In this document: positions 36,074-57,341 of the stretch, in pieces
Numbering within the stretch: the stretch's first letter is position 1
Layout: every line of letters begins with the position of its first letter
IMG/VR virus record: IMGVR_UViG_3300022745_000040
Location: 1 to 57,341 of that record
Strand: one strand, 5' to 3'
DNA from: a virus
Lineage: Duplodnaviria; Caudoviricetes
Length of the DNA stretch: 57,341 nt
Program-made: the position numbers and the translations under genes
Notes under the pieces: generated by a model
Databases searched by the model: none
What the model was told of the DNA's origin: nothing
The model's input: only the letters and a program-made list of their open reading frames with translations

Positions 36074-36838
36074 TTAAATTGCTTTTAAAACTGCTACCAT
36101 TAATTCACCGAGCGGTCTAATACCGTTGCGGCTTATATCTTCACTATAGTATCTTCTAAGCCCAATTGTCAAGTCTTCTTGTTTCTTTTCTAACAATTCT
36201 GCGGCTTTTCTGGCGCTGTTACTGGGCTGCAACTTTAGTGCCACGGCCAGGTGCAACAAGACTTGTCCTTCTCTGATACGGTCAGCATTACAACGCTTGA
36301 CTTCCCACAAAAGTAGTGCATCTAGCAGCGGTAGGGTCCAGTATAGCCACGTTACGGACAAACCTCTAACAATAGAAGCCAGTTCTTGCGGCGAAGGCAG
36401 GTCTGGCAGCTTTAACTTAACTTTGCCTGGTTGGCCTTCAACTTGGTCATGCGTCGAGAAGTGCAGCATGCAGCGCTTTAGTCTACGCTTTACGTGCGCT
36501 GCCAGCGTTCTGTCTGTACCCAGCAGAGCCATGGCTGCAATCATCGGCGACATTTGGTCCCTAGTAACATTGTCTGGGTCATTGTACCACTTGCTGCTAT
36601 CTGGGTTTCGCCTAAACCGGCCAAAGGGTAATAGCGCGGTTAATCGGGCTAGTGAAATGTGAAAGCCGTCATAAGGCGGGCGGTTTAAATCGTCTTGCGG
36701 CGCGCCTAAAATTTCTAACGCTGCGTAGTAGTGTGCTAGCCGATTGCAGCTGTCGCCGCCGTCGCCATTGGCTTGCACAATAACGCCGTGTTGGTCTCTG
36801 TACTTTGCCATTTGCTGTATTAGTTCTGCAACGCTCAT
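36074..36838 (-). CDS. Hypothetical helical enzyme-like protein
   Basis: 254 aa with DGGDS, RR.P and RDQ motifs; family not recognised. Confidence 0.7.
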   Translation of the reverse strand: MSVAELIQQMAKYRDQHGVIVQANGDGGDSCNRLAHYYAALEILGAPQDDLNRPPYDGFHISLARLTALLPFGRFRRNPDSSKWYNDPDNVTRDQMSPMIAAMALLGTDRTLAAHVKRRLKRCMLHFSTHDQVEGQPGKVKLKLPDLPSPQELASIVRGLSVTWLYWTLPLLDALLLWEVKRCNADRIREGQVLLHLAVALKLQPSNSARKAAELLEKKQEDLTIGLRRYYSEDISRNGIRPLGELMVAVLKAI

Positions 36839-38485: not shown

Positions 38486-38514
38486 ACTATAGCGCTGTTT
38501 TAAAGCTTTGTCAA
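38486..38514 (-). promoter_or_regulatory. sigma70 promoter
   Basis: TTGACA-N17-TATAGT in an intergenic gap. Confidence 0.8.
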
Positions 38515-42962: not shown

Positions 42963-42969
42963 AATTACC

Positions 42970-43660: not shown

Positions 43661-43858
43661 TGGGCGTTCCTTAGTAAAGAAAGAACTTACTGCGACGGTT
43701 TAATCCGCAGTCTTACGGCGATGAACAAACGCCTGCCAACCCTGGTTCGCTCAAGTTCTTAGGTATTGAAAAAAAGCCCTGACCACAGTAGGAGAAGACT
43801 GAGGCCAGAGCGATAAAGCGTCCGTGCTTATATGCAGCGTCCTGCTGCGGTTACTAAA

Positions 43859-44290: not shown

Positions 44291-44519
44291 TTTGGTCTCC
44301 TTTAATTACTTTAAATATGTTTAGTCTTACCACATTTTCTCTATTTTGCACTTCTTTATACATCGTATCAAGGTTGTTACCCTTTGTCAACTGAATTTTT
44401 CGAAAATTATCGAGCGCGTTAACGCAATTAGTGGTCATGGGAACGCTGAGTCGCAAACACTGCTCAACCTCGTTAGCTAATGCAATTGCTGCGGCTTCCA
44501 TCGGGCTTATTTTTTCCAT
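44283..44519 (-). CDS. Hypothetical protein
   Basis: 78 aa in the operon. Confidence 0.6.
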   Translation of the reverse strand: MEKISPMEAAAIALANEVEQCLRLSVPMTTNCVNALDNFRKIQLTKGNNLDTMYKEVQNRENVVRLNIFKVIKGDQNE

Positions 44520-44731
44520 TTTACGGTTCCGCCTAGTTGGTTCACTAAAAAGTTTACAGCGGTCCTGGCTTGTTCAATGGATACAAAATCTTCACCAAAA
44601 GAAACTTCGCTGCCAACGACTTCTAGTGTTAGGCCGCGACTGCCTTCAGTTGGAAAAACGCGCTTAACTTCCCACGGTACTTCGTCTACTTTTAACTTCT
44701 GCACTTCATTAAATGCTTCAATTAGTTTCAT
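44507..44731 (-). CDS. Hypothetical protein
   Basis: 74 aa with GGAGG RBS. Confidence 0.6.
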   Translation of the reverse strand: MKLIEAFNEVQKLKVDEVPWEVKRVFPTEGSRGLTLEVVGSEVSFGEDFVSIEQARTAVNFLVNQLGGTVKWKK

Positions 44732-45057
44732 GATTCCTCCGTTTCTTTGCCCATTCTGTTGTCTGTTCCTGTGTTAGTCGCCTGAAAGTGTAGCAGCATC
44801 ATTAAGCAACAAGCGGCGTGTGCCAGGTGCGAGTAGCCGCTTTCGGGGTCCAGGTCTTCACCACGTAGCCACGCAGTAATATGTCGCAAAGCTGCGGCAG
44901 CTGGTCTGCGCCACAAAAAACCTTTTGACCAATTGAAAGCCTGATATTTGCGTTGCCCAAAGCTCCACACTTTTGCGATTTCTTCCAGCGCTATTGGCGG
45001 GTGCAGGCTGTGGTCCGGCTTCCCGTCGTCATACTTAATGCCTCCATTAGCAGTCAT
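44728..45057 (-). CDS. dATP/dGTP diphosphohydrolase domain protein (DUF5664-like)
   Basis: G.KYD.GK, FG..KY...NW.KG, A.LRH..AW..GED.DPESG..HLAHA.C. Confidence 0.85.
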   Translation of the reverse strand: MTANGGIKYDDGKPDHSLHPPIALEEIAKVWSFGQRKYQAFNWSKGFLWRRPAAAALRHITAWLRGEDLDPESGYSHLAHAACCLMMLLHFQATNTGTDNRMGKETEES

Positions 45058-45244
45058 TTTGTCTCCTTAGTTGTTGAATTTTTTTAGCTACTGCAGCGCG
45101 TTCTTTTAGCACTTTTGTCAAGTTTAGCTTCAAAAACGCGTCGTCGTGGAAAGGGCTGTCGCCGTTATTAATTACAAGCATTAATTTATTGGCGGCGTTT
45201 TCCAATTCTTTAATCCGTTCTTGTAAAAGTTCAATCTCGTTCAT
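45047..45244 (-). CDS. Small coiled-coil protein
   Basis: 65 aa. Confidence 0.55.
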   Translation of the reverse strand: MNEIELLQERIKELENAANKLMLVINNGDSPFHDDAFLKLNLTKVLKERAAVAKKIQQLRRQNDC

Positions 45245-45262
45245 TAATCTTCCCTCTCGCGG

Positions 45263-46075
45263 CTACACTTCTTCTATAGCCGTATTAGCTTCTAGCTTAG
45301 CAGCTTTCATCGGCTCTGTCCAGTTGTTTGTGGCTTTCGCTTTCAAAAACTTCTGGCACGCGGTTTGCACTAGTCTTAAACCTGCGGCGGCAGTGGCCTC
45401 AGATGTTTTATAAACGCGGCATTCTTCTGGCTGTTGCTTACTTAAAACGATGTAGTAAAATGTAAAAGGCTTATTGTAGTAAGCTTCTGCCATTGCGCAG
45501 TATAGCGCTCCGCTGAGTGGGTAGCTTAAGTCTTTCATCGTTTGCTTAAAGCTGTCAGCGTCTGCAGAGTAGCCGGTAGTTTTAACGTCCAGTATTCGCC
45601 CGTTGGCGACATCTATCGCATCAAAGCGGACCTTGATGGGAACGCCGAATAATTCGCCAACAATAGTCTGCTCGCATTCAACGTTTTGCATGAGTTTGAC
45701 AGCAGCGGCGTTGCGACGGTAGGCGGCGACTAGTGTGTCTGCTTGAACCTTTTGCGGCATGGAAATAATTGGAAGGCTAGCGCGGTCTTCTGGTAGAAAA
45801 GCTACAAAAGACTCAAACTCTTTGCCGGCTTTACGAAAGCCTGAAAAGAAGTTGTAGCTGCTAGCAACCGTTTCTGGTTCTAAAATCAAACTATGAACTA
45901 AGGAGCCTACATCTAGCGCGTTGCGGTTACCAAAGGCCTTAGTCTCGCCGTCGATGTACTGCTTCTTATACTCGTCTAGCGATTTTAGCACGGTTTTCAG
46001 AACGCTACTGCTGAGATAGCTGCGGTCTGCATGATACTCAGCGTTGCTACAATGGTTTAGTCCGGGTTTTAACAT
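45263..46075 (-). CDS. RecE/exonuclease VIII-like PD-(D/E)XK nuclease (DUF3799-like)
   Basis: N.EYHA...LSSS.LK, GS.VH..ILEP, K.RFD, DVKTT, Y....A.Y. Confidence 0.82.
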   Translation of the reverse strand: MLKPGLNHCSNAEYHADRSYLSSSVLKTVLKSLDEYKKQYIDGETKAFGNRNALDVGSLVHSLILEPETVASSYNFFSGFRKAGKEFESFVAFLPEDRASLPIISMPQKVQADTLVAAYRRNAAAVKLMQNVECEQTIVGELFGVPIKVRFDAIDVANGRILDVKTTGYSADADSFKQTMKDLSYPLSGALYCAMAEAYYNKPFTFYYIVLSKQQPEECRVYKTSEATAAAGLRLVQTACQKFLKAKATNNWTEPMKAAKLEANTAIEEV

Positions 46076-46224
46076 GACTTTAATTCCTCAATGGTTTGTA
46101 GTCTGGTGACAAATTGGATAATAAAAACGCCAACGGCTGCAGCAATAATGTTTTGGTCTTGAACGGCCATACCTATAAGACTGCCCGCCGCTGCTCGAAT
46201 TAAGATGTATTGTAATTTTTTCAT
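46069..46224 (-). CDS. Small membrane protein (51 aa), absent from the ORF track
   Basis: MKKLQYILIRAAAGSLIGMAVQDQNIIAAAVGVFIIQFV..., AGGGGA RBS. Confidence 0.5.
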   Translation of the reverse strand: MKKLQYILIRAAAGSLIGMAVQDQNIIAAAVGVFIIQFVTRLQTIEELKSC

Positions 46225-46245
46225 TATTTCCCCTACGGTAATTAG

Positions 46246-46485
46246 TTATTCAAACTCGTCATTAACAACAGTTTTATATCTTTGGGCCAGTAGGTCTATC
46301 AACCGTCTGCCGTTTTTAGACTCTGCCAATGTCTGTAGCTCTTCGTCTGGATAGCCATGCTTATAGTGAGGTCTAAAAACGTGGTTCCATACGTCGTCCA
46401 GCTTTTGCGCGGCTTTTGCTCCATTCATAGCTAGCTCATATTCTTCAGTTTCTTCTGGTAAGGTAAATTCTAAAATAGCTTTCAC
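46246..46485 (-). CDS. Hypothetical phage protein
   Basis: KAILEF.LPEE N-terminus typical of small phage proteins; GTGA overlap. Confidence 0.65.
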   Translation of the reverse strand: MKAILEFTLPEETEEYELAMNGAKAAQKLDDVWNHVFRPHYKHGYPDEELQTLAESKNGRRLIDLLAQRYKTVVNDEFE

Positions 46486-46730
46486 TTTGACTCCTTTAAT
46501 TTAATATGTCGCATAGTCGCTTTTTGAGCTTCGGAAGGCCACACGTTTAAACAGTCTGGACATTTCCATTCCCATACTCCGTCATAGAGTTTTGGGTACT
46601 CTATACCTATTTCGCGTTTAAAATGTGTTGCTCCGTCTCGATAGTAGTGTAAGTGTTCTGCGGGAATAGACTCGCCTAGTAACGAAACGTTGCAGTGGGG
46701 GCAGTTTAGTAGTGAGTGTGGATTATTCAT
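46482..46730 (-). CDS. Zinc-finger protein
   Basis: CPHC...YDGVWEWKCPDC. Confidence 0.65.
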   Translation of the reverse strand: MNNPHSLLNCPHCNVSLLGESIPAEHLHYYRDGATHFKREIGIEYPKLYDGVWEWKCPDCLNVWPSEAQKATMRHIKLKESK

Positions 46731-46732
46731 CT

Positions 46733-46969
46733 TCAGGCTCCCACTTTCTTTCTGAGGTCTGCGAGTGCTTGTTCTGCTGGTTTTCCGACTGCATATATTT
46801 GCCCGTTTATTTCAAATGCTGCACTTTTATATTTTTCCAAAGCCTCAACCAAAGGCAGCATCAGCTCGATTGCTTGGTTGAATCCCTGCTCGAAACTAAT
46901 TTCATCCGAGTTATTAGTGGCTAGTTTTTCGCCATACGTTTGCAGGGATTTTTGTAGTTGTGTGGTCAT
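46733..46969 (-). CDS. Hypothetical protein
   Basis: 78 aa with ATGA overlap. Confidence 0.6.
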   Translation of the reverse strand: MTTQLQKSLQTYGEKLATNNSDEISFEQGFNQAIELMLPLVEALEKYKSAAFEINGQIYAVGKPAEQALADLRKKVGA

Positions 46970-47154
46970 AGTTCAATCCATTTCGAAAGATACATCTCAA
47001 TTTGAGCTTCATTATCAAAAGAAATGTAGGCCGTTTCTGCACCTTTTTTGCCCCACTCTAAAAGTAAGTCGTGTGGATGACATGAGCATAAATTCTGAAC
47101 TACATAGTACATCATATCTCTTTTTTCAGAATAAAAGATTCTTTCCTTAATCAT
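46966..47154 (-). CDS. Hypothetical protein
   Basis: Start placed at MIKERIF. Confidence 0.5.
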   Translation of the reverse strand: MIKERIFYSEKRDMMYYVVQNLCSCHPHDLLLEWGKKGAETAYISFDNEAQIEMYLSKWIEL

Positions 47155-47158
47155 CCCC

Positions 47159-47377
47159 TCATTCTCCCTCAATTCCATATTCTTCCATAAGTTCATTGAC
47201 AGCATCCTGTAATTCACCCTTTGCTTTACAATAAGCATCTATTAAAGGACGCAATATGGTCCCATCTGTCTCTTTTTTCCATTCGGAATACTCTGTGAAG
47301 CAATAGTCAAAGCCTTCGGCGTCTATTTTGTAGCAAATTAGTTCCACATCTTTTTTAGATACTTTTTTCATCTTCAT
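47159..47377 (-). CDS. Hypothetical protein
   Basis: 72 aa with AAGGAG RBS. Confidence 0.6.
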   Translation of the reverse strand: MKMKKVSKKDVELICYKIDAEGFDYCFTEYSEWKKETDGTILRPLIDAYCKAKGELQDAVNELMEEYGIEGE

Positions 47378-47474
47378 TCTCCTTGTTTAGTTTCGTTCAT
47401 AATTTTGTCTGCTGATTCGAGTGCGGCTCTGGCCCATTCTTTGTTGGATTGAATTCAACGTAATAGAGTTTCAT
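47374..47474 (-). pseudogene. Probable deletion scar / gene remnant
   Basis: A gene start (MKLYYVEF) is joined out of frame to a gene end (ARAALESADKIMNETKQGE*) that resembles the end of 47699..48010. Confidence 0.5.
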
Positions 47475-47698
47475 AGCTTTTTCTCGCCAACTGCCAGTTC
47501 TAGGTCGTTGCCAAGAGCGGCTCTAATGTCTGGGCTGTCTATGTCTTTGTTATAATATGTTAGGTCAGAATCTTTGCCAAGTTTTGTTCTAGTGACCTTG
47601 CGATATTGATGGGTAAGCTCCCAGAAAGCTTTGTTGCCTTCATTTACCTTGTCAATCAATGATTGGACATGCTTTAATTCTTCTGAAAATGTCTTCAT
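47471..47698 (-). CDS. Hypothetical protein
   Basis: 75 aa with GGGAG RBS. Confidence 0.6.
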   Translation of the reverse strand: MKTFSEELKHVQSLIDKVNEGNKAFWELTHQYRKVTRTKLGKDSDLTYYNKDIDSPDIRAALGNDLELAVGEKKL

Positions 47699-48010
47699 TT
47701 AATCTCCCTTCATAATTTTGTCTGCTGATTCGAGTGCTTTTCGCCCCATGAAATCATTGTTAATCATGCAAGACTCAAGTATTTCCCTTGGTTCTTCTCT
47801 GACATCAAACCCGCAATCATCAATGCAGCAATTTTCCTCTACCACTTTTTGCAGCACTTCATTCGCAGCGCGGAGTTTCTGGTTTTCAGACTCAAGCTGC
47901 TCGATTCTCCCATTAGCCAGCTCCATATTTACGCTAAACGTGATGCTCGCGGCGTTGCCGGACTCAATCATCTCTGTCATCTTAGCAAAAATCTCTACTG
48001 AATTACTCAC
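47699..48010 (-). CDS. Hypothetical coiled-coil protein
   Basis: GTG start inside GGAGGCTGCGGAGTGA. Confidence 0.6.
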   Translation of the reverse strand: MSNSVEIFAKMTEMIESGNAASITFSVNMELANGRIEQLESENQKLRAANEVLQKVVEENCCIDDCGFDVREEPREILESCMINNDFMGRKALESADKIMKGD

Positions 48011-48288
48011 TCCGCAGCCTCCACTAATTGCATTTTGTCATCAAATCTTTCAGGGTATTTGAGTTTTGCATAGTTCAAGCAAACTTCTCTTGGGACCTCT
48101 TTAATGTAACCATCCAGTCCTATTGGAGATGCCTCAATACGCATGGTATATTTTCCTGCTCTACATTGTTCATGCTCAAGACCCTCAATTACTGCTTCCG
48201 CAAGACAGGAATGGATATTTAAATTGTAGTGATGTCCCTCTCTATTTTCTTCTCTCTCCATTGAAAGGATATAAAGTAGTTTGTTCAC
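48007..48288 (-). CDS. Hypothetical protein
   Basis: GTG start inside the second GGAGGCTGCGGAGTGA copy; ends EAAE. Confidence 0.6.
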   Translation of the reverse strand: MNKLLYILSMEREENREGHHYNLNIHSCLAEAVIEGLEHEQCRAGKYTMRIEASPIGLDGYIKEVPREVCLNYAKLKYPERFDDKMQLVEAAE

Positions 48289-48662
48289 TCCGCAGCCTCC
48301 CATGTTGCCTTCAGTTTGATTCCGCAGTGTTTGCATTGTGTTGACCAGTTCCCAGTGTCAGGTCCAATGAAAACGTGAGTCGGCTCGTGCTTACACTCTT
48401 CCTTCACCATCTCCTCGATGTTGAACAGCACTGCTTTGTGGTCAGCTCCTTCATATTTAAACTCAGTTACATCAGAAAGAGTTGCCCCATCCATGTAGCC
48501 ATAAACCACTGGGCATTTAGCTAGATGCTCGTCTAATATCTGGTTGGCTCTGTCTGCGGCTTCTGAACACAAAACAGCTGCTTCTGGCGTATAGTTATAA
48601 TAGATAAGCTGCGTAGAGCCTGTGTTTCGAAAATCTTCTGGCTTAAATCTGAATTTACTCAT
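48285..48662 (-). CDS. Hypothetical protein with C-terminal zinc ribbon
   Basis: AGGAG RBS; CKHEP...CKHCG; ends EAAE. Confidence 0.65.
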   Translation of the reverse strand: MSKFRFKPEDFRNTGSTQLIYYNYTPEAAVLCSEAADRANQILDEHLAKCPVVYGYMDGATLSDVTEFKYEGADHKAVLFNIEEMVKEECKHEPTHVFIGPDTGNWSTQCKHCGIKLKATWEAAE

Positions 48663-48685
48663 AACATCTCCTTGTTTAAAAAAAA

Positions 48686-48865
48686 TGTGGTAGGCCAGTC
48701 GCTACTCTGGCTGACAGGACATCGAAGGAATGACCTTCAGTTCTTTCTTAGAGTCACCTGTCGGAACCTGAACCTGCGTGTCTCCAGTGGCTAGGGTCTA
48801 AGGCCGTTTAGATTCCCAGTTTCACAGTGGCTTACCTGCCCACAGCTTTCCACGCCGCTACCACA
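48686..48865 (-). ncRNA. tRNA-like structured RNA (180 nt)
   Basis: Terminal stem TGTGGTAG/CTACCACA, D-like stem GCGTG/CACGC, T-like arm GCCAG-N8-CTGGC beside the 3' strand, further internal helices; fills an ORF-free gap. Confidence 0.7.
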
Positions 48866-48871
48866 AAAATA

Positions 48872-49117
48872 TTAATTCTTACTCCAGTGTAACGCAGACT
48901 TGCAGTCTGGGCAAGTCGTTTCGCTTCTAACTTTTGTCTTTGGCTTCTTGGCACAACGCGTTTTTAGCAGCTTGCCTTTTCGCACGATTTCGTAACCGCA
49001 GCATTTGTCGGACATGCAGTAGCCTGTAAATTCTGGTCTTGTAGCTGCAGCCAGGCTGCCATAATCTTCCGAGTAAGTGTTAGTGTAACCTGCTGCTATT
49101 AGTTTTCCTAAGTTCAT
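48872..49117 (-). CDS. Cys-rich zinc-binding protein
   Basis: C....CC...CPDC, AGGAGG RBS. Confidence 0.6.
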   Translation of the reverse strand: MNLGKLIAAGYTNTYSEDYGSLAAATRPEFTGYCMSDKCCGYEIVRKGKLLKTRCAKKPKTKVRSETTCPDCKSALHWSKN

Positions 49118-49142
49118 AATTCCTCCTGCTTATGATTGTAAG

Positions 49143-49583
49143 TTACTCGTGGCCGTATGGCAACTTTTTTCCGTGTTGCGCTTCAATTTGAGACTTCCAC
49201 TCTTGCAGCAGCTCTGCTTCATTAGCTTTAAATTCTGCAGAACTTAGAACAATTGGGTACATGATGCCGCTGTTGGTATGAGGCAGGCTAAAAACGCAGT
49301 GTCCGATTTCGTGCAGCAGCAGTGCTTTTTTGGCTGCATCATCTGACTTTGACCAGTACGTTCGGTCAAACTTAATCAAATTGCGGCTGCGGAAGCATAG
49401 GCCGGCTTTGCGGTCTGACAGGTCTGCAAATTCTACGATAGTAGTTGGTAAAACGCCTGTTTCTTGCCTGATATAGTTGTAGTAGTTTTTAATTTCTGTA
49501 GTATTTTCTACCTTGCGGCAACAGCTGCTGCAGCTGAGGATTAGTAATGCTGCCAAAAGTGTTAAATTTACATATTTAGTCAT
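49143..49583 (-). CDS. Lipoprotein zinc metalloprotease (metzincin-like)
   Basis: Lipobox-like LILSC; HEIGHCVFSLPH...IMYP Met-turn. Confidence 0.78.
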   Translation of the reverse strand: MTKYVNLTLLAALLILSCSSCCRKVENTTEIKNYYNYIRQETGVLPTTIVEFADLSDRKAGLCFRSRNLIKFDRTYWSKSDDAAKKALLLHEIGHCVFSLPHTNSGIMYPIVLSSAEFKANEAELLQEWKSQIEAQHGKKLPYGHE

Positions 49584-49600
49584 AGTATCTCCTTTGTTAA

Positions 49601-49780
49601 TTAAGTCCAGTGGTGACCGTTAATCTCGTCTTGACATTCTGCTTCCATTTCGTCAAGTTCTTTTTCTGTCAAATCTTCCATTTCGCCGTCTAGGTAATGC
49701 GCTGATATTGGGTAGCGGCTGCCGTCGCGGTTAGATTCCATTTCTACGTAAATTTTTCGACCTCTGTAAGTGAATTTCAT
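49601..49780 (-). CDS. Small acidic protein (59 aa), absent from the ORF track
   Basis: MKFTYRGRKIYVEMESNRDGSRYPISAHYLDGEMEDLTEKELDEMEAECQDEINGHHWT, AGGAGGT RBS. Confidence 0.75.
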   Translation of the reverse strand: MKFTYRGRKIYVEMESNRDGSRYPISAHYLDGEMEDLTEKELDEMEAECQDEINGHHWT

Positions 49781-49803
49781 TTTTACCTCCTAGCTTACAC
49801 TAC

Positions 49804-49819
49804 TGCAATGCTGGTGCCA
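49804..49819 (-). promoter_or_regulatory. sigma54-type promoter
   Basis: TGGCAC-CAGCA-TTGCA just upstream of the RBS; TGT-N10-ACA at 49856..49871. Confidence 0.78.
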
Positions 49820-49888
49820 CGGTTATGAACGTTGTGTTGGACTTGGGGCACTGAGTGTCTATTTTATTACATACAGTGGCTGAAAGTT

Positions 49889-51343
49889 CTACAAGTCGCC
49901 GGCCAAATCGTCTTCGGTCAAAACTTCATACTTGGGCTGGTCTTCCAGTTTTTCAATGACTAAGCAGTATAATCGCTTGTTATTCACGTTTTTGACTTCT
50001 CTAAGTCCTTCAACTGTAAAGTCTGTTGTAAATTCTGAAAAAACGTCGGCTCTGCGAATGTCAAAAATTCTCGGAAATTTTTTGCTGACATTTTTTAAAG
50101 TGTTTATGGAAATAGATGCTTTTTGCCTTGGCAGCTTATGCCCTATGTATTCTGTAGCAGACCTGCAAGTAATGGTTTTGCCAGCAAAGTCTTTGCAGAA
50201 ATCGTCAATAACAAACTTTTCCCAGTCAAAGGCTGATGAGTTTAAAATATTTATAGCATTAGAAGACTTATATCCTTCGACAAGATTTACAGGATTAGGA
50301 GCGCGGTTCATTAATGCGCTTCCTAGTGCTGCAATGTTTTTGTTATCTTCTGACATTGACACGATTTCTTTGTTGCTGAAAACGTGTTGCAGTTTAATTT
50401 TGTTGATATTGATAATTCCGTGGCGTCTGTCGTCTGGGTCTAGTCTTAAAGAGTCGTAGTTGTTGCTGGCAATGTAAATATTGTTGTGGTTTTCTACAAC
50501 CTCGCTGTCCACGCCTTTCAACTCAATTTCGATAATATCATCTTCTTGCTTTTTTAGCGTGTTTATTTCGTCGTTGGTTGCTTTAATAACTTCGTCAAGA
50601 AATATGAAGGTTTTGTCTGCAAATTGCTTGTTAAACTGTTTTCTAATGGATTGAAAAAGCAAATTGCTGCTGTTTTCTTGGCCGTGTAGTGCAGCGATTA
50701 TTTTGCCTAAAACGCCTTTGCCTATGCCTTGTGCGCCGATTGCGGTTATAAACGTTTTGTTCTTTGGTCCTGGCTGAACGCTGTAGGCCATCCAGTCTAG
50801 AATATAGTTGATAGAGCCTTCGTCGTTGGCAGTTAAGTGTCGCAGAAATCGCATGTACAGCTCTGGCACTTCTGTTACGGTATAGGTTCCAGTCTTCCAG
50901 AATGGCGGTTTATACTTGTTTAGTTTGGTCTCTCCATTTTCAGTAATTAGGCCAGTAGGCTTTTTTGGAGTATAGCATATTGGTATGGCCATGCTGCTGC
51001 GAAGATAGTCTTGTCTGTTGAGAAAGTCTTGCGTTAAAACGTCTTTTTTTACTAACTTAATGGTAGAAGTAGCTTCGTCTAACAAAAACCAGTCTTTGCG
51101 GTTTGGCGGCATGATTAGTCTGCAACGCAGTACTTCTTGTATGCGAGCATAAGGTGCGAACTCGTCGCAGATTTTTTTAACAGAGCCGGGAACGTCTGTA
51201 GTCGCTGAAACGCTAATCATGTATAATGCTGCGCTTGTAAGCATTGAAATAATGCTGTCGATGTCGTAGGCTTGCATTGCTAACAGCTCTACTTCTCTTC
51301 TTAATGCCATTGGGCTTGAAATCATTTTGGGGGCTCTAGTCAT
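49889..51343 (-). CDS. SF3-type helicase (DUF5906 / primase-associated)
   Basis: YILDWMA..Q.., GAQGIGKG Walker A, FLDE, ASN, DDRR. Confidence 0.82.
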   Translation of the reverse strand: MTRAPKMISSPMALRREVELLAMQAYDIDSIISMLTSAALYMISVSATTDVPGSVKKICDEFAPYARIQEVLRCRLIMPPNRKDWFLLDEATSTIKLVKKDVLTQDFLNRQDYLRSSMAIPICYTPKKPTGLITENGETKLNKYKPPFWKTGTYTVTEVPELYMRFLRHLTANDEGSINYILDWMAYSVQPGPKNKTFITAIGAQGIGKGVLGKIIAALHGQENSSNLLFQSIRKQFNKQFADKTFIFLDEVIKATNDEINTLKKQEDDIIEIELKGVDSEVVENHNNIYIASNNYDSLRLDPDDRRHGIININKIKLQHVFSNKEIVSMSEDNKNIAALGSALMNRAPNPVNLVEGYKSSNAINILNSSAFDWEKFVIDDFCKDFAGKTITCRSATEYIGHKLPRQKASISINTLKNVSKKFPRIFDIRRADVFSEFTTDFTVEGLREVKNVNNKRLYCLVIEKLEDQPKYEVLTEDDLAGDL

Positions 51344-51360
51344 GGTTTCTCCTTACTGCT

Positions 51361-51389
51361 ACTTTAGCGGGTGATAGCGGCGCTGTCAA
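51361..51389 (-). promoter_or_regulatory. sigma70 promoter
   Basis: TTGACA-N17-TAAAGT between the primase and helicase genes. Confidence 0.7.
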
Positions 51390-51391
51390 CG

Positions 51392-52357
51392 TTAAATTAG
51401 GTTTTTCCATTTATATGCGTTGAATGCACCTATTGATACATTTCGTGCATACCCGGTCCTTATAATCGCTGGGTAAACCTTCTTTTGCAAATAAAGTTCT
51501 AAAGTGTTGTAGGGAACGCCGGTGCTGTCGCATGCCCATAACGCGAGCTTAAACAGCTCATGATACATGCCTTCAGAGCTGGCCCAGGCTTCCGGCTCTT
51601 CTAGCTTTTTCCTTAGCCATTGTAGCGAAGTTTTAACGCGCAACTCACGTTCGAAAGCTGCAACGCTCATCGTCGGGTCTGCGGTAGTTACCGGGCCGTG
51701 TTTGGCCATAGATACTTCTGCGGCCAGTGCAATTATTTGGTCTGCAGTAGCTAATGGCCCTTCATAAACTATTTCTTGTTTAGTCGGTGGTCTGTCATCG
51801 CTGAATGTTCTAACGCCGTTGGGTAGTCGGGCCAGGCGAACAACGTCTTTTGTTGACTGGTCAAAGACTACGTCTGGCGGCGCTTCTAAGGCTTGTTGTA
51901 TTGTAGTAGTGGCCAGCTGTTCAAGACCTTTCCAATACTGCTTGTATAAGGCGGCTGCTTCGGGGCTGCCGGGCTTTCCACACCATAACTCGTCACTTAC
52001 GCTTATCAGAAAATGGAAGGATTTGGACCCGCTATAAACAATGCTTCTGATTGGCATAACTTCTGCTAATACCGGGATGATAGAGCGCTGCTGTTGCAAC
52101 GTCATAGAATCGCTTTCGAGCAGGAAGTTTCGGTAGGCTGCGACATTCTGGCTGTGTCTGCGGCTGCCTTCTGGATTCGGATTAGCATTTGTAACGCTGA
52201 GAGGATTGACGCAGAACTGAGTGTGACTTAAAAGCAACAGCGGGTCTGCATCTATTGCTGCGGCTGTCAAAACGCGTGGATTGCTGTAACCGCCTTCGGC
52301 TTTTAACGCGCCACAAATGTATACAAGGTCGGAAGGCTTGAAAAGCTTCGTAATCAT
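51392..52357 (-). CDS. Primase of the AEP/RepB-like superfamily
   Basis: FLLESD, YSGSKSFH, D...KD..RLARLP motifs. Confidence 0.75.
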   Translation of the reverse strand: MITKLFKPSDLVYICGALKAEGGYSNPRVLTAAAIDADPLLLLSHTQFCVNPLSVTNANPNPEGSRRHSQNVAAYRNFLLESDSMTLQQQRSIIPVLAEVMPIRSIVYSGSKSFHFLISVSDELWCGKPGSPEAAALYKQYWKGLEQLATTTIQQALEAPPDVVFDQSTKDVVRLARLPNGVRTFSDDRPPTKQEIVYEGPLATADQIIALAAEVSMAKHGPVTTADPTMSVAAFERELRVKTSLQWLRKKLEEPEAWASSEGMYHELFKLALWACDSTGVPYNTLELYLQKKVYPAIIRTGYARNVSIGAFNAYKWKNLI

Positions 52358-52635
52358 TTCATCGCCTCCAACTGTTGTTGCAGTTTTTTAAGCTCTTGCT
52401 CTGCGCTTGCCAGTTGCTTATTTATTAAGCTTGCCTCAGTTTTTAAAACTTCTTGCCGCTTTTCAATGTTCTTTAATTGGGCGCGGTACTGGCTCATAAG
52501 ATTTCGGCGCCTGCTTATATTGGTCTTGATTTCGGCCTCACACCCGTTGCAGTAGCGTGGAAAGCCTTCGGCCCGCTGAACCATGTCTATCGTTGGCTTT
52601 TCTTTTTTACATTTTCGGCAAATTCGCGTAATCAT
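52354..52635 (-). CDS. Zinc-finger plus coiled-coil protein
   Basis: CRKC...CNGC; start at MITRIC after AAGGAG. Confidence 0.65.
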   Translation of the reverse strand: MITRICRKCKKEKPTIDMVQRAEGFPRYCNGCEAEIKTNISRRRNLMSQYRAQLKNIEKRQEVLKTEASLINKQLASAEQELKKLQQQLEAMK

Positions 52636-52654
52636 AATTGCTCCTTTAAAGTTA

Positions 52655-52683
52655 AATATACTACATAATTTCAATAAACACAA
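52655..52683 (-). promoter_or_regulatory. Possible sigma70 promoter
   Basis: TTGTGT-N17-TATATT upstream of the RBS. Confidence 0.45.
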
Positions 52684-52695
52684 GAAAAAACTTTT

Positions 52696-52950
52696 GTGGT
52701 CACGGTGGTCACGGTGTGGTCACGGTGCAGACTGCTTTCTAACTACTTAACTTTACTCATTCTTACCTCTATATGGTCATGTGGTCATGCTTTTTTAAGA
52801 AAATTATTTATAAACACTAATATATTACTACTATAGGAGATTTCTGATTTTTGTATTTGACCAGAGACCATTTTTTGTTCTTTTTAAGTTTCTTAAGTGT
52901 TTTTATGTAGTTAACCACACTTTGCGGTCCATTATCGTGGTTTTGGTCAT
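52696..52950. repeat. Iteron-like TGGTCA repeats around an AT-rich core (candidate replication origin)
   Basis: GTGGTCACGG three times (52696, 52705, 52716), TGGTCATG twice near 52774..52789, inverted TGACCA/AGACCA near 52858..52870, TGGTCATG near 52944. Confidence 0.7.
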
Positions 52951-52959
52951 GAAACCAGC

Positions 52960-53265
52960 TCATTTTTCCACCAGCTTCAATATATGCGATTTGAAGACGG
53001 TGGGCGTGTTGCGGCTGCGGACAAGTTCTACAGCTACGGCACCCGGTACTTCGACGGCTGTGACATAGTCCTTGAATAAGCGTTTATAGGCCCGCAGCGC
53101 GTCGATTGTCATTAGGCAGCCATCTGGGTAGGCATCGCAGTAAACGAAGAATAGCGAGGCTTTTGGTGCGTTTTGGCTATCGTTGTCGTCGTTGCCGCTG
53201 TTGGCCTCGTTATATAGCCTGGCATTAAGGTTTAAGTTTATAACGTTGCTGGTAGGCTTATTCAT
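52960..53265 (-). CDS. Hypothetical protein
   Basis: 101 aa. Confidence 0.6.
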   Translation of the reverse strand: MNKPTSNVINLNLNARLYNEANSGNDDNDSQNAPKASLFFVYCDAYPDGCLMTIDALRAYKRLFKDYVTAVEVPGAVAVELVRSRNTPTVFKSHILKLVEK

Positions 53266-53470
53266 GGCTTTTGCCTTTCTGTAGGCTTTGGAAGCCTTGC
53301 TTTGTTAAGAAGTCGTTAAGAGCTGATAGAAGACTGCGGGTGGCTGACGGCGTGCCGTGGTCTACGTAATGTCTGATGGCAGCTTCCCGCAGCTGCTCAA
53401 TATCTGCTGCCGTGATGGTAATGTTTAAAAGTTGCACACTTCTATTTTCGGACGATTTTGCACGGTCCAT
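53258..53470 (-). CDS. Possible ribbon-helix-helix DNA-binding protein
   Basis: LNITIT strand followed by two helices; AAGGAG RBS. Confidence 0.45.
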   Translation of the reverse strand: MDRAKSSENRSVQLLNITITAADIEQLREAAIRHYVDHGTPSATRSLLSALNDFLTKQGFQSLQKGKSHE

Positions 53471-53472
53471 TT

Positions 53473-53748
53473 TTAAAACTCCTTTTTTAGCAATGCTAAA
53501 TTTTTATAGCTGCTATTAGTGTTGTTAATGTTTAAAAAATCTGGTATTGTAAACTTTTTTTCCAAAATTGCTTTTTTTAGCGATTCAAAATTTGAAAAAC
53601 CAAAATCTCTTTTTAAGCCTAAAAAAATAGGGCAAAACTTTTTAAAAACGACGGTCGATGTTGTCAGACGTGGTAAGACCGCGCTTTTTGAAAATAACGC
53701 AATGGCTGGGCGATTAGGCGTGATTAAAGGCATTGTCAGCAAGGTCAT
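53473..53748 (-). CDS. Hypothetical protein
   Basis: ATGA overlap with the upstream gene; low-complexity Lys/Phe-rich sequence. Confidence 0.4.
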   Translation of the reverse strand: MTLLTMPLITPNRPAIALFSKSAVLPRLTTSTVVFKKFCPIFLGLKRDFGFSNFESLKKAILEKKFTIPDFLNINNTNSSYKNLALLKKEF

Positions 53749-54209
53749 AAATCACCCGCAATTGACCTGAGCTTCGCGTTTACTTTTTGCACGTACTTAA
53801 GGCAGGCTCGACTTTTTGCACCGTTTAGCCTCGTCCCGATGTTATAGCGACAAAACCAGGATTGTGGCTCCTTTGCCTGGTATTTGGATTGAAAGTCTGA
53901 CAATATTTTTGCCGAGGCCGCAAGATTGTAGTTAACGTCCGTTTTTAAGCGCTGCAAGTCTAAGCCATAGCGCCTGGCAGTGTTAATGTTTATTTGACCT
54001 ATACCGTAGTCTTTAGTTTTGTGATTGACAGCGGCCTGGTCGTGCCCGGACTCTACGGCAAGGATAGCATTGAATAACTCGGGGTCCAAGTTATAGTAGA
54101 CTGCAACCGCGCTTATTTTGGTCGGTAAGTCTGCAGCGTCGGCAGTTTGACTGAAAACGTACGCCAATGCGAGAAGACTAATAAAAAACGCAATTTTACG
54201 CCGCATCAT
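53745..54209 (-). CDS. Exported SLT-domain lytic transglycosylase
   Basis: Signal peptide, AILAVES catalytic Glu, DYGIGQIN, N....A.IL, RYN. Confidence 0.85.
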   Translation of the reverse strand: MMRRKIAFFISLLALAYVFSQTADAADLPTKISAVAVYYNLDPELFNAILAVESGHDQAAVNHKTKDYGIGQININTARRYGLDLQRLKTDVNYNLAASAKILSDFQSKYQAKEPQSWFCRYNIGTRLNGAKSRACLKYVQKVNAKLRSIAGDL

Positions 54210-54405
54210 TGGATTCCCCTTTTTTAAGAGGTTTTAACTCTGTTTCTAGAAATTGAATAAGGCAGTCCTTAAGCACGGCACGTTGAGTCGATAGCCTGAC
54301 AAGCTCAGCGCCCACAGACTCGCCGGCCTTAGAACGCCGCAATAAGTCGAGCGTTTTTAGCTCATTTTCCTTAAGCAATTTCTGGTAACCGCTTTTTGTT
54401 AACAT
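54196..54405 (-). CDS. Hypothetical protein
   Basis: ATG at 54405 after GAAAGGG. Confidence 0.55.
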   Translation of the reverse strand: MLTKSGYQKLLKENELKTLDLLRRSKAGESVGAELVRLSTQRAVLKDCLIQFLETELKPLKKGESNDAA

Positions 54406-54501
54406 AAACACGCCCTTTCATTAAGAAGTCTTAACAATTTTTTTAAAATGCAAAAAGTCCTTAACAGGACTAAAAACTTTTTGCGTTTTTTTAACACTGT
54501 A

Positions 54502-54738
54502 CTACTTTCGTTTTGGAAAACTTGACTGGCAGTGTTTAAAGCGCCGGTCCAGTCGTCCATCGGACGTTACCGCAAAACTTGTATTTTCAAGCCACTCACT
54601 GTCTGACAAAAACATGGCCATTTGACCAGATTCCTTTGCCCATCGCGGCATTTTACCTAGGACCAAGCGATTGACATAAGCCGATAACACATAATTACGG
54701 TCGTTAATATGCAATTGACTGCCTTTTAGCATTTTCAT
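54502..54738 (-). CDS. Hypothetical protein
   Basis: Start MKMLKG after AAAGGAA. Confidence 0.6.
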   Translation of the reverse strand: MKMLKGSQLHINDRNYVLSAYVNRLVLGKMPRWAKESGQMAMFLSDSEWLENTSFAVTSDGRLDRRFKHCQSSFPKRK

Positions 54739-54763
54739 AAAACGTTCCTTTGTTAAAAAAAAA

Positions 54764-55444
54764 TTAAGCTGCCTTTTTGCTAATAACAAAACCTGACTCA
54801 TCTTTTTTTGCCTTACCTTTTGCAATTAAAGCTACAATTTTTCCTGGCGCATCAAGAAAACGCAAGTCGTGGGCATCGCCTTTAACAATCAAGTCATGCA
54901 TTTTTTCAGAATCATAAACGACTGCAACATTTCGACCGGCTTTTAACGCGGTTTTAATTTCCGACAAGCTTGTAGTTTCAGAACGCGAATAAGTTAAATG
55001 ATAATTTTTTGGCAATTTTTCTTTAGGTCTTACAGAGTAAGGCGCTTTAGTATAATCATAAAACTGGATGTGACTAAACTCAGTAAAAAGTTCAGGCGCC
55101 ACAATTTCCCAACGGATATCTGAAGTCCCATTCAATCTAATAGCGACTTTAAGACCTTCACGCGCCGCTCGACGTTCAATTGCTCGAATATCATGTTTTA
55201 ATTGTTCTATAAAACCTTCCCTATTATTTAGGAAGTGAAGCGTTTTAATTATTCTCGCGTCTTGTATTGATTGAAAACACCCACGCCCCGCAGTATTTAG
55301 GCACGCTTTTTTACAGCCTTCACTCGCAAACGGGCACAAATTGACGCCGCTTAAATCAGCCGGCGCCAGATATAGAATGCCCGTCAAATAGCCCAAAGAC
55401 TCGCCTTTTGTTGTTTTCGCATTTTCGACTGTCAATAGTTTCAT
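54764..55444 (-). CDS. Phage gp88-like / DUF7227-like Cys-motif protein
   Basis: NLCP.AS.GC...CL, RLNGTSDI, FYDYTK, NYHLT.S, GD.HDLRFLD. Confidence 0.7.
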   Translation of the reverse strand: MKLLTVENAKTTKGESLGYLTGILYLAPADLSGVNLCPFASEGCKKACLNTAGRGCFQSIQDARIIKTLHFLNNREGFIEQLKHDIRAIERRAAREGLKVAIRLNGTSDIRWEIVAPELFTEFSHIQFYDYTKAPYSVRPKEKLPKNYHLTYSRSETTSLSEIKTALKAGRNVAVVYDSEKMHDLIVKGDAHDLRFLDAPGKIVALIAKGKAKKDESGFVISKKAA

Positions 55445-55469
55445 AAAATATTCTCCTTTGTTAGTAATC

Positions 55470-55497
55470 TTATCGGTTAATGCTTAAAAAAACTTTA
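55470..55497 (-). promoter_or_regulatory. sigma28 (FliA)-type promoter
   Basis: TAAAGTTT-N12-ACCGATAA. Confidence 0.72.
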
Positions 55498-55499
55498 AT

Positions 55500-55742
55500 T
55501 TAAAAATTAAGAATTTTACAACTGCTCACTTGTGTAAAATGAGAATCTTCAAATAATTCAAATTCACATTCCATATTATTAATTTTACTTAGTTTTTCAT
55601 TGTCTGTTTTTGATGGGTAATGGTAATTGTTTTTGTCAATTCCTTGAATTGCTGTAAAATGAACATAATAGCATGCACCATTTTGAGACCTAACTACACC
55701 TTCGCCGCGTAAACTATCAAACCAACGAATTTGACCTTTCAT
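55500..55742 (-). CDS. Cold-shock domain protein
   Basis: MKG.IRWFD...G.G........YVHFTAI (RNP1/RNP2-like). Confidence 0.8.
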   Translation of the reverse strand: MKGQIRWFDSLRGEGVVRSQNGACYYVHFTAIQGIDKNNYHYPSKTDNEKLSKINNMECEFELFEDSHFTQVSSCKILNF

Positions 55743-55767
55743 AAAATATTCTCCTTTGTTATTAATC

Positions 55768-55794
55768 TTCTCGGTAAAACTTTTAAAAACTTTA
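55768..55794 (-). promoter_or_regulatory. sigma28 (FliA)-type promoter
   Basis: TAAAGTTT-N11-ACCGAGAA. Confidence 0.72.
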
Positions 55795-55797
55795 GCC

Positions 55798-55890
55798 TTA
55801 ATTCAAAAAATAATCTATTAGCAAAATTGTCTCAATACTAACCACAACCATAAAACCCAAAACCGCAAAATATTCTACTAAATATTCCAT
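55798..55890 (-). CDS. Small hydrophobic peptide (30 aa)
   Basis: MEYLVEYFAVLGFMVVVSIETILLIDYFLN; GAAAGG RBS; fills the gap between two sigma28 boxes. Confidence 0.65.
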   Translation of the reverse strand: MEYLVEYFAVLGFMVVVSIETILLIDYFLN

Positions 55891-55912
55891 GGAGCCGCCT
55901 TTCATAATTAGC

Positions 55913-55939
55913 TTATCGGCCAATGCTTAAAAAACTTTA
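55913..55939 (-). promoter_or_regulatory. sigma28 (FliA)-type promoter
   Basis: TAAAGTTT-N11-GCCGATAA, perfect consensus. Confidence 0.85.
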
Positions 55940-55947
55940 GAACTATT

Positions 55948-56037
55948 TTAAAAAATTCCTGCAACAAACATATAAATAACTGAAATTGTTGTTGAAAACA
56001 TGAATAAAAAGATTATTAATTCTGTCATTTTTGTCAT
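55948..56037 (-). CDS. Small hydrophobic peptide (29 aa)
   Basis: MTKMTELIIFLFMFSTTISVIYMFVAGIF; GAAGGG RBS. Confidence 0.62.
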   Translation of the reverse strand: MTKMTELIIFLFMFSTTISVIYMFVAGIF

Positions 56038-56063
56038 AAAACCGCCCTTCATACTAAATTAAT

Positions 56064-56080
56064 AAGCAATACTAATGCCA
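56064..56080 (-). promoter_or_regulatory. sigma54-type promoter
   Basis: TGGCAT-TAGTA-TTGCT upstream of the RBS of the 29 aa peptide. Confidence 0.72.
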
Positions 56081-56097
56081 GTTTTATAACAATTATA

Positions 56098-56126
56098 TTG
56101 CAATTAAGCTTTGTCCATTGTATATT
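56098..56126 (+). promoter_or_regulatory. Possible sigma70 promoter (divergent)
   Basis: TTGCAA-N17-TATATT upstream of 56170. Confidence 0.5.
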
Positions 56127-56169
56127 ATGCTTAACACGACTGAAAAATTGACAAAACAAGGACGTTACA

Positions 56170-56703
56170 ATGTCAAAATATAGAAACTTTAAAGGCTCAC
56201 TTAAGCCTTTTGGCCTCGGCGCTATAAATTCTTCCTCATCCTTCACAAGTCTTCACAAAACTTGGATGGCCAAGCTCGCCAAAAGCGGTTTTAACGACAT
56301 AGAGCTGTCTTCGTACCAGGACCCTGGTCAAGTTTTACCAATTTTTCGCTACGGCGGCAGTTCATACGACCTTGGCCAAGCTTATAGTCCCGAGACTGCT
56401 GAGTACTATAACCAAGCCAGAGCGTTCCTGCACGCGATAAGCTGGCGCAAACACTTTGGAAACGATGCCAAACTGCTTAAATATATCTGGCGCTTATATT
56501 CTGAAGGCATATCAATTCGAAACACGGCCAAAGCGCTTGAAGGCCTGCCCCTTGCTTATCCATATAATAGTCTTAATACCAAGCCGCATCCAAGCTTTAA
56601 GCAACGTCGTGGCATTTGGTGGATTCATAAGCAGATTCACAGAGTTATGCCGGCTTTTAAAGCTTGGCAAGCTACTTTAAATAGTGAAGAATTATCAGAT
56701 TAA
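56170..56703 (+). CDS. HTH protein, candidate phage transcription factor
   Basis: IWRLYSEGISIRNTAKAL resembles a sigma region-4/LuxR HTH start; AAGGA RBS; lone + strand gene in the early region. Confidence 0.55.
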   Translation: MSKYRNFKGSLKPFGLGAINSSSSFTSLHKTWMAKLAKSGFNDIELSSYQDPGQVLPIFRYGGSSYDLGQAYSPETAEYYNQARAFLHAISWRKHFGNDAKLLKYIWRLYSEGISIRNTAKALEGLPLAYPYNSLNTKPHPSFKQRRGIWWIHKQIHRVMPAFKAWQATLNSEELSD

Positions 56704-56734
56704 TAACCGTCGACAGTATTATCGGCGTTAACAT
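56672..56734 (-). CDS. Small hydrophobic peptide (20 aa)
   Basis: MLTPIILSTVINLIILHYLK; AAAGGAGA RBS. Confidence 0.55.
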   Translation of the reverse strand: MLTPIILSTVINLIILHYLK

Positions 56735-56767
56735 ATCTTCTCCTTTCTGCAAAACAAGCGCAAACTC

Positions 56768-56783
56768 TGCAATAATCATGCCA
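56768..56783 (-). promoter_or_regulatory. sigma54-type promoter
   Basis: TGGCAT-GATTA-TTGCA upstream of the RBS of the 20 aa peptide. Confidence 0.72.
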
Positions 56784-56925
56784 AGGCTTATCCCCCCTGC
56801 AAGATTTATTCCAGCGATTTTAAGGCCTTACGGCTACCTAAGACTAGGCAAGACTGCCATCGTTCAATAGCGGCGCCGCTGAACACGTTTAAACTGCTCT
56901 TCCTATAATGCTACACTAAAAACGC

Positions 56926-57112
56926 GACTCATTGCAAGACAAATCATTTTGAGACTGACCCTGTTATTGCAACGCTGCATGGTCTTAGACAAGCGACGAG
57001 GATTGAACGTGTCTTTTTTTGACGCGCCCCATTTTGAGCCGACTTTTGAAACGGTCATATTGAGATTGTGCCTTGAGCGTTTGTTATAGGCTTGCCACGG
57101 CTTCATGAGACA
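56926..57112. promoter_or_regulatory. Cluster of CAWWWTGAGAC-like sites (enhancer/operator candidates)
   Basis: TCATTTTGAGAC (56944), CCATTTTGAGCC (57029), TCATATTGAGAT (57055), TTCATGAGACA (57102), GACTCATTGCAAGAC (56926). Confidence 0.55.
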
Positions 57113-57154
57113 GTCGCGCTTGTAGAAGCAGGGGCGGCGGAAGACAGCGTTGTC

Positions 57155-57341
57155 AACCTTGGCACATTTTTTGCATCCGGCTAGCAACGCCCGCAGTCGT
57201 GGCACGGTCCTTGCAAAAAAAAAACTTGCTTCTCAAGACTAGTCGTGTCATAATGAGACTTATCCAAACACGGGGGTTTTAACACATGATAACGTCTATA
57301 AACGAGCTAAAAGACTTTTTACTATGGGCACGGGCGCAAAA
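57155..57341. repeat. Terminal direct repeat / circular overlap, right copy
   Basis: Starts aaccttggcacatttt at 57155 and matches the window start to the last base. Confidence 0.97.

Follow-up and report, generated by a model that had tools for sequence, protein, structure and literature searches.

Three tandem sigma28-type promoter sequences at the head of the leftward gene arm of an uncultivated tailed phage

Sigma28-type sites P1-P3 and the genes behind them

The uncultivated phage genome IMGVR_UViG_3300022745_000040 (Caudoviricetes) was analysed over its whole length, positions 1 to 57,341, and this stretch is called the window in the following. It is a single contig of 57,341 bases that constitutes the whole assembly, with a CheckV completeness of 100%. 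The genes of its minus strand form a leftward arm, and among the first of them are genes for a 30-aa (amino acid) hydrophobic peptide, an 80-aa cold-shock-like protein and a GP88-family protein (Table 1). We describe here three sites, P1, P2 and P3, that lie directly ahead of these three genes, all fall within 470 bp and match the consensus of the flagellar sigma factor sigma28 (FliA/SigD). In our reading, which we find rather probable on the strength of the sequence, P1-P3 are tandem promoters that are read by the host RNA polymerase with sigma28.

The sites were scored against the E. coli sigma28 consensus, TAAAGTTT-n11-GCCGATAA in PMC2859248. An earlier note on this DNA had named the same consensus, and its description of three minus-strand copies of the motif, with their spacing and orientation, is borne out, with 16/16 positions matched in P1, 14/16 in P2 and 15/16 in P3. 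P1 is hence the perfect match that it had reported. The -35 octamer is complete (8/8) in all three sites. The -10 octamer matches at 8/8 in P1, 6/8 in P2 and 7/8 in P3, with the CCGA core intact throughout, and the spacers of 11, 11 and 12 nt compare with about 11 nt for the sigma28 class. A simple sigma70 scan (TTGACA/TATAAT, 16-18 nt apart) called no sigma70-type promoter at P1-P3.

Such a set of sites is not expected in a genome of this composition. The pattern TAAAGTTT-N10-13-CCGA has three matches in the window, exactly P1-P3, where 0.07 are expected, and three were reached in 0/100 dinucleotide shuffles. When both octamers were scanned for mismatches, four distinct sites were found at up to 2/16 mismatches (first-order Markov shuffles: mean 0.38, maximum 2), and two sites have at most one mismatch, against 0.0 in 100 shuffles. 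By arithmetic, the expected number of perfect 16/16 matches in one genome is only about 1e-4. Taken by itself, TAAAGTTT is not enriched in the genome (10 versus 7.65 expected), and CCGATAA by itself is (11 versus 4.65 expected). The fourth site, on the plus strand at 27414, stands 30 nt ahead of the ACGGAGG-ATG of a 94-aa open reading frame (ORF) that precedes the ART-PolyVal gene (340 nt downstream), and it could be a chance match.

Repeat search and alignment show P1-P3 to be copies of a single module, about 53 nt long, which begins with the -35 box and ends at the start codon (identities 100/87/64%). The leader GATTAMTAACAAAGGAGAATATTTTATG is common to P2 and P3 and the spacer to P1 and P3; P2 has a spacer of another sequence, and both of its boxes are nonetheless kept. 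Between the -10 box and the ATG lie 22 nt in P1 and 25 nt in P2 and P3, with a Shine-Dalgarno site in between. The claim of the earlier note that each site is closely followed by a ribosome-binding site (RBS) and an ATG holds for the 30-aa peptide, the cold-shock-like and the GP88 genes. The -35 box of P3 begins only 3 nt past the stop codon of the preceding gene. In the 80-aa protein the likeness to cold-shock proteins lies in the first 35 residues (Pfam CSD E 0.0039 and 17.5 bits, under the 27-bit cut-off; PDB CspB E 9e-6).

We propose that one promoter-leader module was duplicated and gave rise to three tandem sigma28 (FliA/SigD)-class promoters, each equipped with a Shine-Dalgarno site and a start codon of its own. 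Host RNA polymerase carrying the flagellar sigma factor would read P1-P3 and transcribe from them the leading genes of the leftward arm, that is, the small hydrophobic peptides, the cold-shock-like protein and GP88, onward in the direction of the lytic transglycosylase. Sigma54-type sites at the head of the arm and before the structural arm, and sigma70-type sites before replication genes, would form one mixed set with P1-P3. From the motif and its placement we infer that P1-P3 fire and that the sigma28 of the host reads them, and position and gene content suggest that the genes behind them are early genes.

Table 1. Positions of candidate promoter sites, genes and motif-bearing contigs. Positions refer to the window unless a locus of another contig is named. 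SD, Shine-Dalgarno site.
Feature	Position	Strand	Details
P1, candidate sigma28-type promoter	55913..55939	-	TAAAGTTT (55939-55932), N11, GCCGATAA (55920-55913); 16/16
P2, candidate sigma28-type promoter	55768..55794	-	TAAAGTTT (55794-55787), N11, ACCGAGAA (55775-55768); 14/16
P3, candidate sigma28-type promoter	55470..55497	-	TAAAGTTT (55497-55490), N12, ACCGATAA (55477-55470); 15/16
Possible fourth sigma28-type site	27414-27440	+	AAAAGTTT-N11-GCCGAGAA; 14/16
30-aa hydrophobic peptide ORF behind P1	55798..55890	-	ATG 55890, RBS GAAAGGCGG; alternative ATG 55905
80-aa cold-shock-like protein behind P2	55500..55742	-	RBS AAAGGAG; ATG 25 nt past -10 box
GP88-family protein behind P3	54764..55444	-	PF17338 (E 1.6e-45), phrog_1617; same 25-nt leader as P2
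Sigma54-type site	56065..56080	-	TGGCATTAGTATTGCT; head of leftward arm, just upstream of P1
Two tandem sigma54-type sites	57160..57215	+	TGGCACATTTTTTGCA, TGGCACGGTCCTTGCA (57160 and 57200); repeated at 6-61
Sigma54-type site	49804..49819	-	TGGCACCAGCATTGCA; 22 nt ahead of TAGGAGG-N6-ATG, 59-aa ORF
Sigma54-type site	36228..36243	-	within 3' part of 254-aa ORF; about 55 nt before TTGACA-N18-TATAGT
Sigma54-type site	56768..56783	-	TGGCATGATTATTGCA; then AAAGGAG-ATG and 20-aa hydrophobic ORF; antisense to end of 177-aa gene
Sigma54-type site	45354-45369	+	antisense
Predicted sigma70-type promoter	51361..51389	-	TTGACA-N17-TAAAGT; before primase/helicase gene; RBS and start codon
Predicted sigma70-type promoter	38486..38514	-	TTGACA-N17-TATAGT; then leader of about 110 nt
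Portal	942-2819	+	
Major capsid protein	3921-5126	+	
ART-PolyVal ADP-ribosyltransferase domain protein, 398 aa	27755-28951	+	end of structural arm
Contig G001, GC 41%	L215-L217		4 sigma28-type sites in 2.5-kb stretch (L216 3059-5604) and 2 isolated 2-mismatch sites
Contig G002, GC 37%	L218 1-5100		11 sites in first 5 kb, each ahead of small ORF
Contig G003, GC 33%	L220/L221	both	11 sites; motif before most genes
Contig G004, GC 39%	L187 8937-9124		3 sites 92-95 bp apart in non-coding leader; sigma54-type site upstream
Contig G005, GC 56%			3 perfect sites

Recurrence of the motif and candidate readers

Which factor would read P1-P3 depends in part on what the phage itself encodes. The complete genome was searched in six frames with profiles whose controls worked (the Sigma54_activat control was positive in 14/14 genomes), and there was no match at E<=1 for Sigma70_r2, FliA_WhiG, sigma70-ECF, FlgM, Sigma54_DBD or Sigma54_activat. 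Among the largest unknown proteins of the phage none matched a polymerase-like family, and the 254-aa unknown protein has no sigma-like neighbours. Since no phage sigma factor is detectable and the sites stand at the very head of the arm, the host holoenzyme with sigma28 would be the simplest reader.

The motif is not confined to the window. An exact IMG/VR scan for TAAAGTTT-N11/12-GCCGATAA returned at least 120 stretches, and the figures given here hold among the 120 matches listed: 27 stretches have two or more sites and 13 have three or more (at <=1 mismatch), and a Shine-Dalgarno-like site plus start codon follows within 70 nt for 114 of 172 sites (66%), compared with 23% of 2000 random windows. 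Five contigs that were studied whole, G001 to G005, contain 3 to 11 sites each. Genes for primase, tape measure, terminase and portal identify them as tailed phages, and the genes that they have in common are a DNA methylase in three of the five, a nuclease homolog in G001 and G002, and nothing else. Because the motif is common to unrelated contigs that share almost no genes and, in the 20-59% of each genome covered, gave no sigma match, a conserved host factor explains it better than a shared phage factor would. That this is a widespread strategy, in which unrelated uncultivated phages place host sigma28 promoter arrays (here also sigma54) before their own genes, is possible, and we put it forward with some doubt. 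In the literature on phage promoters read by sigma28 or sigma54 we found no case of a lytic phage, most subscription journals lying outside the coverage.

None of the cultured phages is close to the window. The 4.3-kb end region, the portal and the capsid protein had no match in 50,697 phage records, the DNA polymerase has its best match at 33% identity in Flavobacterium phages, and the tail fibre matches collagen-like repeats only. No relatives of the cold-shock-like protein or of the primase were found in IMG/VR, and the 160 GP88 loci (0.74 Mb; best identity 60%) show other gene contexts and no sigma28 site ahead of the GP88 gene. Nearer relatives were found through the portal, with ten loci (L081-L090) at 29-66% identity, and through the capsid protein, which is 63% identical in a 36.9-kb contig binned in a metagenome-assembled genome (MAG) labelled Candidatus Peribacteria. 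In the 170 GP88 and portal loci together (160 and ten; 0.87 Mb) only three isolated sites at <=2 mismatches occur, and the background rate is thus about 0.2 per 57 kb. Of the sites in the 36.9-kb contig, one has 2 mismatches and three have 3, and neither this contig nor the ten portal loci contain an exact sigma54 site.

Several observations weigh against a sigma28 reading of P1-P3 and have to be set beside those in its favour. As copies of one repeated module, P1-P3 are not three independent events. The ten portal loci and the 36.9-kb contig have no sigma28 site at <=1 mismatch and no homologous cassette; the conservation in related phages that the earlier note had suggested looking for therefore finds no support in the nearest relatives, and the promoter use looks specific to this phage lineage. 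Phage sequence was met in one metatranscriptome run, in which 15% of the sampled words occur and whose contigs match dispersed parts of the window, 55608-55741 within the cold-shock-like gene among them; this is the only RNA library with the phage, and its assembled contigs show neither starts nor strand, with DNA carry-over possible. On the protein side, a small ORF at 43454-43519 gave a weak Sigma70_r4-like helix-turn-helix match of 13.8 bits. A profile of T7-type single-subunit RNA polymerases found no match in the phage, but its control matched nowhere, so this negative carries no weight, and a very divergent phage sigma or sigma-appropriating factor would escape profile searches altogether. 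Sigma profiles matched in 0/5 of the contigs G001-G005, which are only 20-59% complete.

A reader other than host sigma28 could be an unrecognised phage factor, such as a divergent sigma or a protein that redirects the holoenzyme, or a different host group-3 sigma. We regard this as unlikely. Many proteins of the leftward arm are without any family match and could hide such a factor, as could the weak region-4-like helix-turn-helix at 43454-43519; the G003 motif, which stands before most genes on both strands (11 sites), resembles a general phage promoter, and sigma-like proteins encoded by phages are known, as far as the accessible text of PMC8948821 goes. However, with P1-P3 at the head of the arm, a factor encoded in this same arm could not yet act on them, and the motif corresponds to the bacterial sigma28 consensus at every position. 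It is moreover shared by unrelated phages of 33% to 56% GC that have almost no genes in common, no sigma model matched at E<=1, and the 254-aa protein has no sigma-like neighbours. A further alternative, which we hold to be very improbable, is that P1-P3 are not promoters, and that a duplicated AT-rich leader resembles the sigma28 consensus by accident or serves as the binding site of another protein. Three copies of one module make an effective sample of one or two, the sub-region 54001-56000 is indeed AT-rich (GC 0.373; whole phage 43.3%), and TAAAGTTT alone is not enriched. Yet accident fits poorly with a 16/16 match at the right spacing and with 0/100 shuffles that contain a site at <=1 mismatch. 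The conserved part starts exactly at the -35 box, the boxes are kept where the spacer diverged, and the same arrangement is seen in other phage contigs, where 66% of the sites precede a Shine-Dalgarno-like site and start codon.

A reading by host sigma28, which we continue to favour, raises the question of the host. The earlier note pointed to a Bdellovibrio-like predator, in which FliA promoters would allow expression in non-growing attack-phase cells; its premise agrees with the accessible part of PMC3627812, where FliA-type boxes (TTAAG-N16-CCGATA) are reported at 92/140 attack-phase promoters of B. bacteriovorus. We found no tie of the phage to this host and consider the proposal hardly probable. 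The GC content of the phage is near that of the Bdellovibrio phage phi1422 (NC_019525.1, 44.3%), but the only likeness between the two is a collagen-like stretch in the tail fibre, and phi1422 has 0 sigma28 sites at <=1 mismatch, 0 sites of the Bdellovibrio type TTAAG-N16-CCGATA and 0 sigma54 sites. One of the contigs with sigma28 arrays, G001, shares with phi1422 a replication module of eight ORFs at 30-43% identity (helicase 40%, primase 35%, RecE-like, Sak4-like), and phi1422 is its best match among the 50,697 phage records. A portal profile run on bacterial genomes gave Myxococcota or 'delta proteobacterium' MAGs as four of the five best matches, and the best of these MAGs encodes FliA (209 bits, above cut-off), which two other MAGs tested do not. 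The two leads toward the former delta-proteobacteria are weak; the portal-bearing MAG loci have a GC content of 61-71%, far from the 43% of the phage. The enterobacterial form TAAAG-N15 describes the boxes of P1-P3 no less well than the Bdellovibrio form TTAAG-N16. Most flagellated bacteria possess sigma28, and the motif is therefore not specific to a predator. Scans of bacterial genomes with single proteins produced one weak match each, the DNA of 38000-57341 matched none of 401 genomes from the phylum to which the best portal-bearing MAG belongs, which is uninformative either way, and an Atlas comparison returned viral neighbours only. To judge from the strong Shine-Dalgarno sites and the canonical TTGACA/TATAAT promoters, translation and sigma70 signals in the host would be of the ordinary kind. 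Should the readings of the sigma28 and sigma54 sites be right, the host possesses both factors and is most likely flagellated.

Sigma54- and sigma70-type sites and known systems

The earlier note had the phage start its programme with sigma28. The arm begins, however, with the sigma54-type site at 56065-56080, followed by an RBS and the ORF of a 29- to 34-aa hydrophobic peptide (55948-56052), and sigma54- and sigma70-type sites also occur elsewhere in the genome. The sigma54 pattern TGGCAY-N5-TTGCW (GG and GC 10 nt apart) has 9 exact matches, where 0.30 are expected, and 9 were reached in 0/100 shuffles; once the end repeat is removed, 7 unique sites remain. Four unique sites stand on the coding strand directly before an RBS and start codon, namely those at 56080 and 49819 and the tandem pair, and this pair lies about 70 nt ahead of the operon of the structural arm that encodes the 81-aa protein, the HNH endonuclease and the portal. 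Since sigma54 sites depend on an activator, those ahead of the structural arm could constitute a late switch without a recognisable phage activator, and they pose the question of how a phage without a recognised enhancer-binding protein would fire them. Around the tandem pair, the 14-nt repeat TCATWWTGAGAYTG is found three times on the plus strand (56944-56961, 57055-57072 and 57248-57265), with copies 105 and 216 nt upstream of the pair. Genome-wide it has 9 matches at <=2 mismatches versus 2.4 expected, and the copies may be sites of an activator or repressor. Exact sigma54 matches number 21 in 1.11 Mb of sigma28-match loci and 7 in 0.44 Mb of GP88 loci, and the window lies about tenfold above both. 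A general pairing of sigma28 and sigma54 sites in phages was also considered and dropped, as sigma54 matches are no commoner in sigma28-match loci than in GP88 loci.

Sigma70-type sites occur 20 times in the genome versus 9.0 expected. Besides the two listed in Table 1, gene-oriented sites with RBS and start codon are found at 49163 (146-aa gene), 39415 (132-aa gene) and 18075 (646-aa structural gene), and a strong sigma70 site is absent at the start of the arm headed by P1-P3. The phage would appear to use a mixed set of three promoter classes, without a recognisable transcription factor of its own.

Phage early promoters are usually taken to be of the sigma70 type or to serve phage-made polymerases and sigma factors. 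By motif, P1-P3 resemble the class 3 flagellar promoters of E. coli and Salmonella (aer, trg, fliC), which have the same octamers, the 11-nt spacer and the short distance to the gene. In contrast to these, the candidate promoters P1-P3 lie on a phage genome, before genes without a link to motility and in three tandem copies of a module. The arrangement recalls phage T7, where A1, A2 and A3 are tandem strong early sigma70 promoters at the entry end. Both sets are closely spaced promoters for the host polymerase that head an arm of small genes of unknown function, but it is sigma70 that is used in T7, whereas here it would be a flagellar sigma class preceded by a sigma54-type site. The three sigma28 sites of G004, 92-95 bp apart in a long leader, resemble the T7 arrangement as well. 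Other phages bring their own sigma factor, such as gp28 of SPO1. The phages phiEco32 and 7-11 do so too, according to the accessible text of PMC8948821. The promoters of all three are likewise unlike the host housekeeping type, but they match a phage-encoded sigma, while here the consensus is a conserved one of the host and no phage sigma was detected. The attack-phase FliA regulon of B. bacteriovorus likewise uses sigma28-type boxes for a broad, non-flagellar gene set, but with a consensus, TTAAG-N16-CCGATA in the part of PMC3627812 that is accessible, that differs from the form in P1-P3 of this phage. Phage-carried DNA is also tied to the host flagellar regulon in the prophage-borne flagellin and TldR loci of enterobacteria, described in the accessible portions of 10.1101/2023.11.30.569447 and PMC13418256 as lysogenic-conversion genes that remodel the flagellum; as presented there, these are not promoter arrays before the first genes of the phage.

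If P1-P3 act as we propose, expression would be tied to flagellar sigma factors and hence to motile cells with a finished flagellum, where sigma28 is free. This would suit phages that enter via the flagellum or whose target cells swim and grow slowly. For a lytic-type phage whose programme begins in part on a flagellar sigma, infection success would be linked to the motility state of the host, and TAAAGTTT-N11-GCCGATAA arrays would be a simple sequence marker for such phages that limits the range of possible hosts to flagellated bacteria. The consensus of the P1-P3 class is one that E. coli sigma28 also reads, which makes the idea easy to test. What emerges beyond P1-P3 is an apparent sigma28-array pattern recurrent in uncultivated phages and a single phage with three putative promoter classes. 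The three sites P1-P3 suggest that the motility transcription machinery of the host is used for the first leftward genes.

Genome layout and further features

Bases 1-188 repeat 57155-57341 (187 bases), the single difference being an additional A in a run (A10/A11), so that the assembly is closed, either circularly or by a short terminal repeat. The same A10/A11 run also varies within one sequencing run, and the IMG/VR label "linear" is probably due to that one-A indel. The sequencing runs that contain the phage sequence are labelled as freshwater metagenome. The plus-strand arm has genes from 56170, across the contig end, to 29444 and encodes, in order, a 177-aa protein, an 81-aa protein, the HNH endonuclease, the portal, the major capsid protein, tail proteins and the ART-PolyVal-domain protein. 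The minus-strand arm has genes from 56052 down to 29441, for small peptides, the cold-shock-like protein, GP88, an SLT transglycosylase, the primase/helicase, an exonuclease, a family A DNA polymerase, two ClpP-like proteases and the large terminase. The two arms diverge at 56053-56169 and converge with overlapping stop codons at 29441-29444.

In the relatives found through the portal (L081-L090) and in the 36.9-kb contig, the ClpP-like genes, terminase and portal share one strand, and in L081, L082, L085-L088 and the contig G006:C22 they follow one another in this order. The window differs from them, as its terminase arm (29441-34857) is inverted relative to the portal arm (133-2819). Its large terminase (29441-31927, minus strand) measures 828 aa, compared with about 490 aa in the relatives, and contains an intein with a LAGLIDADG endonuclease inside (Pfam Intein_splicing, LAGLIDADG_3, Hint_2). 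No tRNA genes were found in the phage, and no Rfam family matched anywhere in the window. Long GC-rich non-coding intergenic stretches, which look structured, are present on the minus strand at 38372-38485, 43661-43858 and 48663-48871, and one of the three comes after a perfect sigma70-type promoter. The intergenic region 52684-52816 contains iteron-like direct repeats, with three copies of CCGTGACCAC and two of CATGACCA, and may be an origin or operator. A 109-aa protein (44728-45057, minus strand) matches the N-terminal domain of dATP/dGTP diphosphohydrolases (PF18909, E 1.3e-32), a domain linked to phages that modify their purines.

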